Below, piece after piece: positions 10,407 through 30,917 of a stretch of DNA of 64,000 nt. The first letter of the stretch is position 1, and each line of letters opens with the position of its first letter. Both the position numbers and the translations under genes were made by a program. This DNA comes from Escherichia coli (lineage in GTDB: Bacteria > Pseudomonadota > Gammaproteobacteria > Enterobacterales > Enterobacteriaceae), in the NCBI RefSeq assembly GCF_016026235.1, contig NZ_CP065613.1, one strand, 5' to 3'. The notes beneath the pieces were generated by a model, which made no database searches, was not told the DNA's origin, and was given only the letters and a program-made list of their open reading frames with translations.

Positions 10407-10450
10407 CGTCCAGATACTGAACATTCTAATTTTTAGCATGTGATACCTAA

Positions 10451-24647: not shown

Positions 24648-26087
24648 ATGTCAGTACCCGTTCAACATCCTATGTATATTGATGGACAGTTTGTTACCTG
24701 GCGTGGAGACGCATGGATTGATGTGGTAAACCCTGCTACAGAGGCTGTCATTTCCCGCATTCCCGATGGTCAGGCCGAGGATGCTCGTAAGGCAATCGAT
24801 GCAGCAGAACGTGCACAACCAGAATGGGAAGCGTTGCCTGCTATTGAACGCGCCAGTTGGTTGCGCAAAATCTCCGCCGGGATCCGCGAACGCGCCAGTG
24901 AAATCAGTGCGCTGATTGTTGAAGAAGGGGGCAAGATCCAGCAGCTGGCTGAAGTCGAAGTGGCTTTTACTGCCGACTATATCGATTACATGGCGGAGTG
25001 GGCACGGCGTTACGAGGGCGAGATTATTCAAAGCGATCGTCCAGGAGAAAATATTCTTCTGTTTAAACGTGCGCTTGGTGTGACTACCGGCATTCTGCCG
25101 TGGAACTTCCCGTTCTTCCTCATTGCCCGCAAAATGGCTCCCGCTCTTTTGACCGGTAATACCATCGTCATTAAACCCAGTGAATTTACGCCAAACAATG
25201 CGATTGCATTCGCCAAAATCGTCGATGAAATAGGCCTTCCGCGCGGCGTGTTTAACCTTGTTCTGGGGCGTGGTGAAACCGTTGGGCAAGAACTGGCGGG
25301 TAACCCAAAGGTCGCAATGGTCAGTATGACAGGCAGCGTCTCTGCAGGTGAGAAGATCATGGCGACTGCGGCGAAAAACATCACCAAAGTGTGCCTGGAA
25401 CTGGGGGGTAAAGCACCAGCTATCGTAATGGACGATGCCGATCTTGAACTGGCAGTCAAAGCCATCGTTGATTCACGCGTCATTAATAGTGGGCAAGTGT
25501 GTAACTGTGCAGAACGTGTTTATGTACAGAAAGGCATTTATGATCAGTTCGTCAATCGGCTGGGTGAAGCGATGCAGGCGGTTCAATTTGGTAACCCCGC
25601 TGAACGCAACGACATTGCGATGGGGCCGTTGATTAACGCCGCGGCGCTGGAAAGGGTCGAGCAAAAAGTGGCGCGCGCAGTAGAAGAAGGGGCGAGAGTG
25701 GCGTTGGGTGGCAAAGCGGTAGAGGGGAAAGGATATTATTATCCGCCGACATTGCTGCTGGATGTTCGCCAGGAAATGTCGATTATGCATGAGGAAACCT
25801 TTGGCCCGGTTCTGCCGGTAGTCGCATTTGACACGCTGGAAGATGCTATCTCAATGGCTAATGACAGTGATTACGGCCTGACCTCATCAATCTATACCCA
25901 AAATCTGAACGTCGCGATGAAAGCCATTAAAGGGCTGAAGTTTGGTGAAACTTACATCAACCGTGAAAACTTCGAAGCTATGCAAGGCTTCCACGCCGGA
26001 TGGCGTAAATCCGGTATTGGCGGCGCAGATGGTAAACATGGCCTGCATGAATATCTGCAGACCCAGGTGGTTTATTTACAGTCTTAA
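24648..26087 (+). CDS. aldA: Lactaldehyde / glycolaldehyde dehydrogenase (NAD+)
   Basis: 479-aa ORF recognised as aldehyde dehydrogenase AldA. Confidence 0.95.
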   Translation: MSVPVQHPMYIDGQFVTWRGDAWIDVVNPATEAVISRIPDGQAEDARKAIDAAERAQPEWEALPAIERASWLRKISAGIRERASEISALIVEEGGKIQQLAEVEVAFTADYIDYMAEWARRYEGEIIQSDRPGENILLFKRALGVTTGILPWNFPFFLIARKMAPALLTGNTIVIKPSEFTPNNAIAFAKIVDEIGLPRGVFNLVLGRGETVGQELAGNPKVAMVSMTGSVSAGEKIMATAAKNITKVCLELGGKAPAIVMDDADLELAVKAIVDSRVINSGQVCNCAERVYVQKGIYDQFVNRLGEAMQAVQFGNPAERNDIAMGPLINAAALERVEQKVARAVEEGARVALGGKAVEGKGYYYPPTLLLDVRQEMSIMHEETFGPVLPVVAFDTLEDAISMANDSDYGLTSSIYTQNLNVAMKAIKGLKFGETYINRENFEAMQGFHAGWRKSGIGGADGKHGLHEYLQTQVVYLQS

Positions 26088-26096
26088 TGAGTGAAA

Positions 26097-26121
26097 GAGG
26101 CGGAGGTTTTTTCCCTCCGCC
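26097..26121. terminator. Hairpin between convergent aldA and gapC (GGCGGAGG tttttt(c) CCTCCGCC)
   Basis: GC-rich 8-bp stem with a T-rich loop between the two stop codons. Confidence 0.4.
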
Positions 26122-26129
26122 TGTGCGCG

Positions 26130-27131
26130 TCAGAGTTTAGCGAATTTTTCGAGGGTGCGAATAAGCTGCGTGACGAAGCCATATTCGTTATCGTACCAGG
26201 CGACCGTTTTCACCAGTTGTAAATCGCCCACGGCGGTAATTTCCGTTTGCGTGGCATCAAACACTGAACCGAAATGGCTGCCAATGATATCGGAAGAGAC
26301 TATTTCTTCATCGGTATAACCAAATGACTCGTTATTGGTGGTTGCTTGTTTAAGTGCGTTATTCACCTCTTCGGCAGTCACTTTTTTTCCGAGAATCGAT
26401 ACCAGTTCAGTGACCGAACCTGTTTTCACCGGCACGCGTTGCGCATGACCTTTCAGTTTGCCGCTCAGTTCCGGGATCACCAGACCAATGGCTTTTGCCG
26501 CCCCCGTAGTGTGGGGAATGATATTTTCTGCCGCTGCGCGTGAAGCACGTAAATCTTTACCACGTGGGCCATCCACCAGTGACTGGGTGCCAGTATAGGC
26601 ATGAATGGTCGTCATCGTGCCGACTTCTATCCCGAAACTGTCATGCAAGGCTTTGGCCATCGGCGCAAGACAGTTAGTGGTGCATGACGCCACGGAAACA
26701 ATGGTGTCGTTGCCATCCAGAGTGTCGTCATTGACGTTATAAACGATAGTTTTCATTTCACCGGCAGGAGCGGAAATCAACACCTTCTTCGCACCAGCAT
26801 CAAGATGCGCCTGCGATTTATCGGCGGAGGTATAAAAGCCAGTACATTCGACAATGATTTCTGCCCCTTTCGCTTTCCACGGAATATTTTTAGCCTCTTT
26901 TTCGGCGTAAATCGCGATACTTTTCCCATCAACGATAAGTGAATCTTCCGTAAAATCAACGCTCCAGGGGAACGGTCCGTAGTTTGAATCATGTTTGAGC
27001 AGGTAGGCGAGAATTTTTGGAGAAGTGAGATCATTAATAGCGACAACGTCTATGTTGCTTTTGACTTCAAGTAATCGACGCAACACCAGTCGACCGATAC
27101 GACCAAAACCGTTAATACCAACTTTACTCAT
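26130..27131 (-). CDS. gapC: Glyceraldehyde-3-phosphate dehydrogenase paralog, apparently intact
   Basis: Uninterrupted 333-aa ORF ([20 protein letters not shown]...), NAD-binding motif and catalytic ...SCTTNCLAP... present. Confidence 0.9.
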
Positions 27132-27319
27132 GGTTTTCTCCTGTCAGGAACGTTCGGATGAAAATTGATCCTTTCCAGGCTTAGACCAGGATTGTGGGAT
27201 GGGCAATCTCCATTCTTACAGTGAAACGTAACGTACTGAAAACGGGTGAACAATATTTAATGAAATTTTGAGAAAAGCCCGTTATGTTAACGGAAAATTA
27301 TGTTGAAGCAGGAAATGTT

Positions 27320-27850
27320 ATGGAAAATAAATACTCAAGGTTACAAATCGGCATTCACTGGCTGGTCTTTTTGCTGGTTATCGCAGCGTATTGCGCAATG
27401 GAGTTTCGTGGTTTCTTCCCACGTAGCGAACGGCCGCTCATCAACATGATTCATGTTTCCTGTGGCATCTCAATTCTCGTGCTGATGGTGGTTCGTCTTT
27501 TGTTAAGACTGAAATACCCAACCCCGCCGATTATACCTAAGCCGAAACCGATGATGACGGGACTGGCGCATTTGGGACATTTGGTGATTTATCTCCTGTT
27601 TATTGCGCTGCCAGTGATTGGTTTGGTGATGATGTATAACCGGGGCAACCCGTGGTTTGCGTTTGGTTTGACGATGCCTTACGCTTCAGAGGCCAATTTC
27701 GAACGGGTAGATAGCTTAAAGTCGTGGCATGAAACGCTGGCGAATCTGGGATATTTTGTCATCGGTTTGCACGCTGCGGCTGCACTGGCACACCACTATT
27801 TCTGGAAGGACAACACACTTCTACGCATGATGCCGCGTAAACGTTCCTGA
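27320..27850 (+). CDS. cybB: Cytochrome b561
   Basis: ORF 27284..27850; ATG at 27320 (MENKYSRLQIGIHWLVFLLV...), 176 aa. Confidence 0.9.
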   Translation: MENKYSRLQIGIHWLVFLLVIAAYCAMEFRGFFPRSERPLINMIHVSCGISILVLMVVRLLLRLKYPTPPIIPKPKPMMTGLAHLGHLVIYLLFIALPVIGLVMMYNRGNPWFAFGLTMPYASEANFERVDSLKSWHETLANLGYFVIGLHAAAALAHHYFWKDNTLLRMMPRKRS

Positions 27851-27860
27851 AGAATATTTA

Positions 27861-27924
27861 AAGAAAACGCCTGTACTAAAACCGACCCGTGGTACAGGCG
27901 AAGAATACGGGTCTACATCGGAAG
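27861..27924 (-). ncRNA. rydC: Hfq-dependent small RNA RydC
   Basis: Reverse complement reads CTTCCGATGTAGACCCGTATTCTTCGCCTGTACCACGGGTCGGTTTTAGTACAGGCGTTTTCTT, which I recognise as RydC; K-12 position between cybB and ydcA is conserved. Confidence 0.75.
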
Positions 27925-28094
27925 CGCCTATTATATTTATTTGTATGACAAATAAAACCATAATCCTTGCCCATACGTCCATCTGGCTTATTTTTAATCA
28001 ATTCACCCGATCTTTGATCTCATCAACGGTATCAAAATAAACCAGCGTATAACGTTCAAATCGAACATAAGATTCGATAAACCATGGAGGTTAT

Positions 28095-28268
28095 ATGAAA
28101 AAACTGGCACTTATTTTGTTTATGGGAACGCTTGTTTCCTTTTATGCCGATGCCGGGCGCAAACCCTGTTCTGGTTCGAAAGGGGGGATCTCACACTGTA
28201 CGGCAGGCGGCAAATTTGTCTGTAATGATGGTTCTATTAGTGCATCGAAAAAAACATGCACTAACTGA
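28095..28268 (+). CDS. ydcA: Small secreted protein (57 aa, signal peptide)
   Basis: ATG at 28095 with an upstream GGAGG; MKKLALILFMGTLVSFYADA... to TGA at 28266-28268. Below the ORF-track length cutoff, read by hand. Confidence 0.75.
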   Translation: MKKLALILFMGTLVSFYADAGRKPCSGSKGGISHCTAGGKFVCNDGSISASKKTCTN

Positions 28269-28328
28269 AGTGTAAAAGGGGTGCCATGAGAAAATGAATC
28301 TGCTAGTCAGATGCGCGGGGAAAATCCC

Positions 28329-29622
28329 CTGAGGGATCCCCAGAAAATTTAGTAAACCATTATCATATTGGTATACCGTTGCTGTAGAACTTTCAGCCCT
28401 GCGTCAAGTGACAGTGTGTTTAGTATGAGTGGAGAATGTCGAATCACATTCTCCGCCAGTTTTAATAACGAGATGACTCGCCTGTGCTTCACTGTATTTG
28501 CCTGATATTTATGATGTATCCCTTTGTTTTCCAGGCTGAAACCGCTTAACCACATAATGATACTGGCTAATGTTGCGATCAGACTCAATACCGTGACCCG
28601 CCCGGATGAATGACTGGCACCAAACCGTAGTCCAAATCCCCAGCGAGGATTTTTTTCATCCCTGAAATTTTGCTCAATTTGCATTCTACGGCTGTATAAT
28701 TTCATTACCTGTTTTGGCGAGAACTCAGTACTGTTTGTGAAAATAAACCATGGTGATTTCCCGGCAGTACGAGCTTTAGCCGTCACCGATGGTCTGGTTG
28801 CTCTTTCCTTCGAGCGTTTAAATCTACGACCTTTAGGCTTACTTTTATAAAGATAAAAATGCCCTTCATGTTGTGCATTTTTATCTCGACCCAGCAGGCC
28901 TTCACCTAAATAAATTGCTGTCGTTGATGCTTTTGTGCCTGAGTCCGACACCTTTTCCCAGCCATTACCAACATTGTAATAATGATTGCCCAGTACCCGG
29001 CAAATATAGGTCCAGCCACGGGAGCGGAGCTGTTGGAACCATCGCCCCTGAAAACCGGCATCTGTAATAACAATGACATCAGTCCCGGGGGAAAAGCACT
29101 CAGCAAGCGATTCCAGAAAACGCTCATGTACATCTGCATTCGCTGTCTGTGATGATGGAACGACACAACTCATCAACGGTAAAGAACGCCCGTCACATGC
29201 CAGGCTTGCCCGCAAAAGCTGAAAACGAGAGGCATGATAAGCACTCCAGTCAATGAGTATCACAACACGAGACATTCCCCGCGTAATCTTTTGGGTAATT
29301 CGCTGAAAAATGGTGGAAACCTCATTTTGCAAATGTCGATTCCCCAACAGTCGATCCACCCGCTTTATTTTGTTTTTAACTGATGCCGTACCGGTTAAAT
29401 GACGCCCGATACTGGTAAGTGTGAGGGAAGCGCCATTTATTACAGCATTAGTTGCGTCAATCAGTGATTTTTGACGGTAAAGATGCAAAGGGGCCAGTAT
29501 GTTGTTAAGGAAATTTTGGCATAATGAACGTGCAGGCATAGTGGTGATCTCCTTGAAATTGTTAGCACAATCAATTAGATCACATCTCACTATGCCTGTC
29601 TTGTTTTCTGGGGATTCCTCAG
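28329..29622 (-). mobile_element. IS4-family (IS10-like) insertion sequence, about 1.29 kb, with 19-bp imperfect terminal inverted repeats
   Basis: Left end CTGAGGGATCCCCAGAAAA (28329-28347) and right end TTTTCTGGGGATTCCTCAG (29604-29622) match 18/19 as inverted repeats and resemble the IS10 terminus (CTGA..ATCCCC). Encodes a single transposase. Confidence 0.8.
28349..29539 (-). CDS. IS10-like DDE transposase (396 aa)
   Basis: Aligns by eye with the IS10 transposase as I recall it (KRVDRLLGNRHL, ILIDWS, DAGF, C-terminal YSRRMQIEQNFRDEK). Start taken as ATG at 29539 (MPARSLCQNF...); the track ORF extends 37 codons past the IS end. Confidence 0.85.
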   Translation of the reverse strand: MPARSLCQNFLNNILAPLHLYRQKSLIDATNAVINGASLTLTSIGRHLTGTASVKNKIKRVDRLLGNRHLQNEVSTIFQRITQKITRGMSRVVILIDWSAYHASRFQLLRASLACDGRSLPLMSCVVPSSQTANADVHERFLESLAECFSPGTDVIVITDAGFQGRWFQQLRSRGWTYICRVLGNHYYNVGNGWEKVSDSGTKASTTAIYLGEGLLGRDKNAQHEGHFYLYKSKPKGRRFKRSKERATRPSVTAKARTAGKSPWFIFTNSTEFSPKQVMKLYSRRMQIEQNFRDEKNPRWGFGLRFGASHSSGRVTVLSLIATLASIIMWLSGFSLENKGIHHKYQANTVKHRRVISLLKLAENVIRHSPLILNTLSLDAGLKVLQQRYTNMIMVY

Positions 29623-30917
29623 GGGAAGGCCACGCCTGCAACAGCGTCATGTTGACCGAGCAGGGTTAACGACAATTCGGTTTCCGTACCGGCGGCAATG
29701 GATTCCAGATTCCATTTGCCTTTTTCTCCCCAGCGGAAACCAATCGAACCGTTCGGCACTACCAATTCACCTGCGGTATTAACTGCTACGGTTTTCCACT
29801 GCGGATTGTTGCTTTCGCCCAGTCCATCCACCAGGTCAGATGCGCGGATCATGCGCCCAGGAACGTAGCTACCATCGTCGCGAGGCTCCAGCATTACCAG
29901 CATCGGCATGTCGCTGTAGCGGCGGCAGTAGTTGATAAAGTAGTCGCTGGGATTATCGAGATGAAACTCTTTTAAAATCACATGGCCCATTGCCATCGCC
30001 AGGGCGCTATCAGTGCCTTGTTTCGGTGCCAGCCACTGGTCGCACAATTTGGCCACTTCAGAGTAGTCAGGGGTAATGGCGATGGTTTTAGTGCCTTTGT
30101 AGCGTACTTCGGTAAAGAAGTGGGCGTCCGGCGTACGTGTCTGCGGTACGTTAGACCCCCAGGCGATGATGTAGCTGGAGTTATACCAGTCGGCAGATTC
30201 CGGTACGTCGGTTTGCTCGCCCTAGGTCATCGGCGAGGCGGGCGGCAGGTCGCAATACCAGTCGTAGAAACTTAAACAGGTGCCGCCAAGCAGCGACAGA
30301 TAACGCGTTCCGGCGGCGTAAGAAACCATCGACATCGCCGGGATCGGCGAGAAACCGGCAACGCGATCCGGGCCGTAGGTTTTGATGGTCCAGACGTTAG
30401 CGGCGGCAATCAGCTGGTTTAGTTCCTGCCAGTTGGAGCGGATAAACCCGCCGCGCCCACGCACTTGTTTGTAGCTCAGGCACTTTTGCGGATCGTTCAT
30501 AATCGATGCCCACGCCAGTACCGGATCGCTGTGTTGCTTGAGGGCTTCGCGCCACAGTTCAATCAGTCGTTTACGAATGAGCGGGTATTTCAGGCGGTTA
30601 GCGCTGTAAAGATACCAGGAGTAACTTGCGCCACGCGGGCAGCCGCGAGGTTCATGATTGGGCAGGTCAGGGCGAGTGCGCGGGTAGTCGGTCTGTTGGA
30701 TTTCCCAGGTCACCAGACCATTTTTAACGTAGATTTTCCAGCTACAGGAGCCTGTACAGTTAACACCGTGGGTGGAACGCACGATTTTGTCGAACTGCCA
30801 ACGCTGGCGATAGCTGTCCTCCCAGTCGCGGTTGCTATGCATCACCTGTCCGTGACCATCGGCAAAGGTTTCGCCCTTTTGTTTGAAGTAGCGAAAGCGA
30901 TCCAAAAGTTTACTCAT
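29623..30917 (-). pseudogene. narZ: Respiratory nitrate reductase Z alpha subunit, 5' remnant (truncated by IS, plus in-frame TAG)
   Basis: Starts [24 protein letters not shown] at 30917; in-frame TAG at 30222-30224 (plus strand CTA); frame continues to the IS right end at 29622. Only about 430 of roughly 1,250 codons remain; no narY/narW/narV follows. Confidence 0.85.

Follow-up and report, generated by a model that had tools for sequence, protein, structure and literature searches.

Within the window, by which we mean the whole stretch of 64,000 nucleotides of Escherichia coli DNA that was analysed, gapC lies on the minus strand between aldA and cybB. The features of the locus were placed as follows, with positions counted along the window.

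24648..26087, plus strand: aldA (aldehyde dehydrogenase A), the convergent neighbour of gapC, placed by its ORF and by synteny with annotated K-12 and FDAARGOS_943
26098..26122, no strand: a 9-bp GC-rich hairpin in the 42-nt spacer of convergent aldA and gapC, from RNA folding
26130..27131, minus strand: the gapC CDS, 333 codons with an ATG start plus a TGA stop (26130-26132), for a type I NAD-dependent glyceraldehyde-3-phosphate dehydrogenase
26382..26388, minus strand: an A7 homopolymer in gapC codons 248-250 (G-K-K), gene nt 744-750; A6 in K-12, a -1 frameshift
27015..27017, minus strand: gapC codon 39 (AAA, Lys); by pairwise alignment the A at gene nt 115 is T in K-12, giving TAA (Lys39stop)
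27132..27319, no strand: the divergent gapC-cybB intergenic region of 188 nt, the presumed promoter site, with 5 substitutions relative to K-12
27138..27142, minus strand: a Shine-Dalgarno sequence, AGGAG, 6 nt upstream of the gapC ATG, read from the sequence
27320..27850, plus strand: cybB (cytochrome b561), the divergent neighbour of gapC; the start at 27320 fits the 176-aa annotated product
about 28330-29620, minus strand: an IS4-family element (ISEc60-like) of 1.3 kb directly after ydcA, with a mechanically called transposase ORF of 433 aa at 28349..29650

The initial annotation described gapC as an uninterrupted 333-aa ORF at 26130-27131 without stating a strand. The ORF listing of the window showed exactly this, a single ORF on the minus strand with no internal stop, and the chance that 333 random codons contain no stop was computed as about 1e-7. 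The order aldA-gapC-cybB is that of the canonical gapC locus and matched the annotated genomes, as expected of the gapC ortholog. The mechanical ORF of cybB began at 27284, compared to 27320 for a product of the annotated length. RNA folding gave the hairpin in the aldA-gapC spacer an energy of -19.3 kcal/mol (z = -4.2), with none of 200 shuffles equally good, and on this prediction it is a probable shared terminator. A T-tract-based intrinsic-terminator scan of 26000-27400 did not call the hairpin, and since this consensus scan was uninformative the structure was judged by folding instead. In the spacer as a whole (26088-26129), the loop of the hairpin was 1 nt longer than that of K-12 (TTTTTTCCC vs TTTTTTCC) and the stem was the same. 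A sigma-70 consensus scan of 26000-27400 returned one weak promoter-like site against a shuffled expectation of 1.8, and none above background.

The gapC ortholog of K-12 MG1655 is annotated as 'frameshifted; internal stop', and the initial annotation had called it a split pseudogene. A global alignment over 1002 nt showed 12 SNPs and one 1-bp deletion between the window gene and the MG1655 gene. This alignment, which had been suggested as a check, bore the description out and located the K-12 damage in a nonsense codon and in a homopolymer that has lost 1 bp. The window has neither lesion, and its reading frame is not shared by K-12. In the A6 version of the homopolymer, GKK is followed by TGA directly after the slip. 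These two changes, Lys39stop and A7 to A6, inactivate gapC in K-12.

The strain had also been argued not to be K-12, and the wider comparison agreed. In addition to the 12 gapC SNPs, about 42 kb of flanking sequence was 98.0-99.0% identical when the window was locally aligned with 100 kb of MG1655, and two large structural differences emerged. At 10407-10420 there is a deletion point: the window runs almost straight from paaY to pdxI and lacks 8.9 kb of K-12 sequence in which the ydbA autotransporter pseudogene is disrupted by IS2 and IS30. On the other side of gapC, about 49.4 kb of K-12 sequence was replaced by the ISEc60-like element, after which the window resumes inside narZ. Compared to K-12, the window lacks hokB, trg, ydcI, opgD, tehAB, ydcR-V, patD, ansP, nhoA, narI, narW and narH, and of narZ it lacks the 3' two-thirds. 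Nitrate reductase Z would be inactive. When complete E. coli genomes were searched with the junction between the IS and narZ (27900-30100), it was found in no other genome.

The closest relatives were GCA_014155105.1 and FDAARGOS_943. GCA_014155105.1 showed 100% identity to the window along 7.5 kb. This match takes in the IS, which is inserted at the same position on the ydcA side and is followed in that genome by hokB and trg. The window gapC was 100% identical at the nucleotide level to the annotated gap of E. coli FDAARGOS_943 and of several other assemblies, and among the complete E. coli genomes of the collection none but FDAARGOS_943 was seen with this identical sequence. FDAARGOS_943 has IS600 in ydcF, and both IS1 and IS600 within its ISEc60 copy by ydcA; IS expansion has therefore gone further in this same lineage. 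The IS600 and IS1 copies near gapC of FDAARGOS_943 had raised the suspicion of a Shigella-like, IS-riddled genome, which was rejected once mapping to K-12 revealed a single IS across about 43 kb of comparable sequence.

The initial annotation had named the product a full-length GAPDH paralog with a catalytic cysteine motif, and the family assignment upheld this. GapC scored 446.2 bits against the type I GAPDH equivalog profile TIGR01534, for which the curated cut-off is 367.2 (E=7e-134), and residues 3-325 were aligned onto profile positions 1-330 of 330. Both Pfam domains, PF00044 (Gp_dh_N, residues 3-102) and PF02800 (Gp_dh_C, residues 155-313), were found far over their gathering scores, giving an N-terminal Rossmann NAD-binding domain and a C-terminal catalytic domain. 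The cysteine motif reads S149-C150-T151-T152-N153-C154 and is accompanied by His177. Residues S149, C150, T151, H177, T180, T182, T209, G210 and R232, which are the essential or ligand-binding residues in PMC8615399, were all present and were invariant in ten alleles. The NAD+ site, for which the residue list of EcGAPDH1 was taken from PMC8615399, was likewise complete, with a GxGxxG-type loop (G5-INGFGRIGR-14), the acidic D34 that goes with NAD over NADP, and R11, I12, K78 and S120.

A search of solved structures showed that GapC is identical at 331 of 333 residues (99.4%) to EcGAPDH1 (PDB 7C5F, 7C5H, 7C5P and 7C7K, and the C150/H177 mutants). By its sequence, EcGAPDH1 is established as the gapC product, a gene name that is absent from PMC8615399. 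The purified enzyme carried out NAD+-dependent oxidation of glyceraldehyde 3-phosphate (G3P) with a Km of 0.73 mM, under assay conditions (50 C, pH 10) that are not physiological (PMC8615399). The C150A substitution abolished the activity, H177A or C150S lowered it 10^3 to 10^4-fold, and a thioacyl intermediate was captured (PMC8615399). With 331 of 333 residues in common with the assayed protein, the window GapC is very probably an NAD+-dependent, phosphorylating G3P oxidoreductase.

Eight further alleles, which included those of a B strain, O157:H7, extraintestinal isolates and water isolates, had 95.5-98.8% nucleotide identity to the window gene and were all annotated as intact 333-aa proteins. 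Third codon positions accounted for 67 of the 75 segregating sites in ten gapC sequences, and the pairwise dN/dS relative to the window allele was 0.04-0.08, with a pooled value of 0.044. Only eight amino-acid positions varied among the ten GapC alleles, all of them conservatively, and the contacts to NAD+, G3P and phosphate were invariant (R11, I12, D34, K78, S120, S149, C150, T151, H177, T180, T182, T209, G210 and R232). A full-length ortholog with 90% identity was found in Citrobacter freundii. The low dN/dS and the bias towards third positions, over alleles that are up to 4.5% diverged, point to long-term purifying selection on gapC.

The gene was nearly universal in the species, with at least 80% of its length matched in 5409 of 5426 complete E. 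coli genomes by nucleotide search. The identity was at least 90% in every genome with a match, and at least 95% in all but 94, as expected of gapC orthologs. The allele census rests on allele-specific 41-mer and 80-mer searches, plus the eight annotated alleles. The 41-mer was built so that any megablast seed must contain the K-12 TAA, and with this probe the TAA haplotype at codon 39 was counted in 1155 of the 5426 complete genomes (about 21%), leaving about 79% without the K-12 stop codon. The exact 80-mer with the K-12 A6 was found in at least 1036 genomes, and all 23 of the sampled hits that were not exact spanned 81 nt, as expected for A7. An intact gapC is thus the majority state and the K-12-type broken copy is in the minority. 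As a strain marker an intact gapC is weak: it excludes K-12 and its clade, but with the K-12 stop missing from about 79% of complete genomes it discriminates little further.

The carriers of the TAA were not confined to laboratory stocks. In an evenly spaced sample of 30 carriers, about 20 came from clinical, livestock or river sources and had larger genomes than K-12, and both K-12 lesions were present in strain 720632, a sampled carrier from outside laboratory stock. Present in about 21% of genomes, many of them from non-laboratory isolates, the K-12 lesions are a natural lineage polymorphism and were not acquired in the laboratory. The natural clade with the K-12 double lesion amounts to about a fifth of the E. 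coli sequenced. The many carriers from outside the laboratory are at odds with a published remark that laboratory strains are the ones accumulating gapC mutations. Most or all of gapC was missing from 17 of the 5426 genomes, one of which, strain SCPM-O-B-7615, matched the first 205 nt of the gene only, and five gapC matches lay on records labelled as plasmids. These plasmid-labelled matches and the 17 gapC-poor genomes have the appearance of oddities of assembly or of rare disruptions that arose independently. With the K-12 nonsense allele in about a fifth of genomes and the gene largely or wholly absent from these 17, gapC is dispensable.

Published data on expression come mostly from K-12. 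A ChIP-seq peak of sigma-S RNA polymerase lies in the K-12 gapC-cybB intergenic region (PMC4447067), inactivation of rpoS resulted in fewer gapC transcripts (PMC2759082), and in EPEC the gapC mRNA was detected and was CsrA-dependent (PMC6333774). As quoted in PMC2949598 and PMC1796617, Espinosa-Urgel and Kolter (Mol Microbiol 1998, pmid 9622357) reported that gapC is expressed preferentially in fresh water and that environmental isolates carry an intact gene. The gene also serves as an E. coli qPCR marker, for which UniProt P58072 and Hidalgo et al. 1996 are cited (PMC10614358). In E. coli NEBExpress, of the B lineage, an IS1A was found about 170 bp upstream of an intact gapC, at the normal place of cybB, and the divergent gapC promoter region may therefore be altered by IS1A in B-derived expression strains.

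We favour, with a probability of about 0.9, the reading that the window carries an intact gapC of the ancestral type, encoding an NAD+-dependent phosphorylating GAPDH whose expression is probably aided by sigma-S and which would have an auxiliary role during slow growth, in stationary phase or out of the host. We infer both the expression and the physiological role for this particular strain. The divergent gapC-cybB promoter region would drive its transcription, probably with a contribution from sigma-S. In the predicted enzyme, Cys150 would attack the aldehyde of G3P with His177 acting as the base, a hydride would then pass to NAD+, and phosphate would resolve the thioester to give 1,3-bisphosphoglycerate. 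GapC would in this way act as an auxiliary GAPDH in slow-growth, stationary or out-of-host conditions. The suggestion in the initial annotation that the strain may have a functional second GAPDH fits the invariant catalytic and NAD-binding residues, the dN/dS of about 0.04-0.08 and the near-identity to an active enzyme, all of which make a functional product very probable.

The same intact gene could be cryptic, that is, too little expressed to matter and drifting towards loss as in the K-12 lineage. Because the loss of gapC is evidently tolerated, with the K-12-type stop fixed in 1155 of 5426 genomes including many natural isolates, such a state may hold for this individual strain; glycolytic flux is borne by GapA, and the scan of 26000-27400 found no strong sigma-70 promoter. 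Nevertheless, the dN/dS of about 0.04-0.08 and the 67 of 75 polymorphisms at third positions indicate long-term purifying selection, all eight of the diverse alleles sampled were intact, the Citrobacter ortholog is full length at 90% identity, and transcripts have been reported (PMC6333774, PMC2759082), so that we consider a cryptic gapC improbable. An enzyme of the GAPDH fold with another substrate, either an Epd/GapB-like erythrose-4-phosphate dehydrogenase or an ArsJ-associated GAPDH, would account for the matches to the NCBIfam profiles of these families, but the matches were below threshold, as expected of any GAPDH homolog. GapC scored 275.4 against a cut-off of 530.55 for TIGR01532 and 279.8 against 539 for NF010058, the two erythrose-4-phosphate dehydrogenase profiles, and 306 against 450 for the ArsJ-associated NF033735. 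Neither arsJ nor a pdxB-pathway gene lies next to gapC, which is flanked by aldA and cybB, and NAD+-dependent oxidation of G3P has been measured for EcGAPDH1, the protein with 99.4% identity (PMC8615399). This reading is left with a very slight chance.

The intact frame might also be produced by sequencing or assembly if a true A6 had been miscalled as A7, given that the A7 run, the site of one K-12 lesion, is an error-prone homopolymer. However, the nonsense SNP is independently absent and the same nucleotide sequence occurs in several independent assemblies, which excludes such an artefact for practical purposes, and the span of 81 nt in 23 of 23 sampled non-exact hits to the K-12 A6 80-mer is also consistent with A7. 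We regard its probability as negligible. A bolder version of the favoured auxiliary role would have GapC as a sigma-S-dependent GAPDH of low temperature or fresh water that selection maintains for life out of the host, with the K-12-lesion clade having lost an out-of-host fitness trait. We hold this version to be doubtful. If it were true, whether gapC is intact or broken would mark lineages by their ecological specialisation rather than reflect a laboratory artefact.

The biology in this picture is already known, including gapC itself, the K-12 lesions, the intactness of the gene in natural isolates (1998), the structure and the activity. The frequency of the K-12 pseudogene haplotype, and its wide distribution among non-laboratory isolates, is a small addition. 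Among known systems, EcGAPDH1 (GapC; UniProt P58072 for O157:H7) shares with the window the gene, the locus and Cys150/His177, and its phosphate-site residues, both of the Ps and of the 'new Pi' site, are also present in the window GapC. The crystallised EcGAPDH1 has V74 and E104 where the window GapC has I74 and D104, and no other residue differs. These two substitutions, I74V and D104E, are conservative, lie in the NAD-binding domain outside the listed ligand-contact residues and correspond exactly to the B-strain allele; the B lineage is apparently the one whose allele matches the crystallised protein.

The K-12 gapC pseudogene (gapC_1/gapC_2, b1417/b1416) is orthologous to the window gene at 98.7% nucleotide identity, with its neighbours and promoter region in common. 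In contrast to the window allele, which has none of the three, it carries Lys39stop, the A7 to A6 frameshift and R18G. The housekeeping GAPDH of E. coli, GapA, is an essential glycolytic enzyme that carries the glycolytic flux. GapA has the fold, the domains, the SCTTNCLAP motif and the dependence on NAD+ in common with GapC, whereas it is encoded at a separate locus and is only 46% identical. Doolittle and colleagues reportedly assigned GapA in 1990 to a eukaryote-like lineage, with GapC being of the typical bacterial type.
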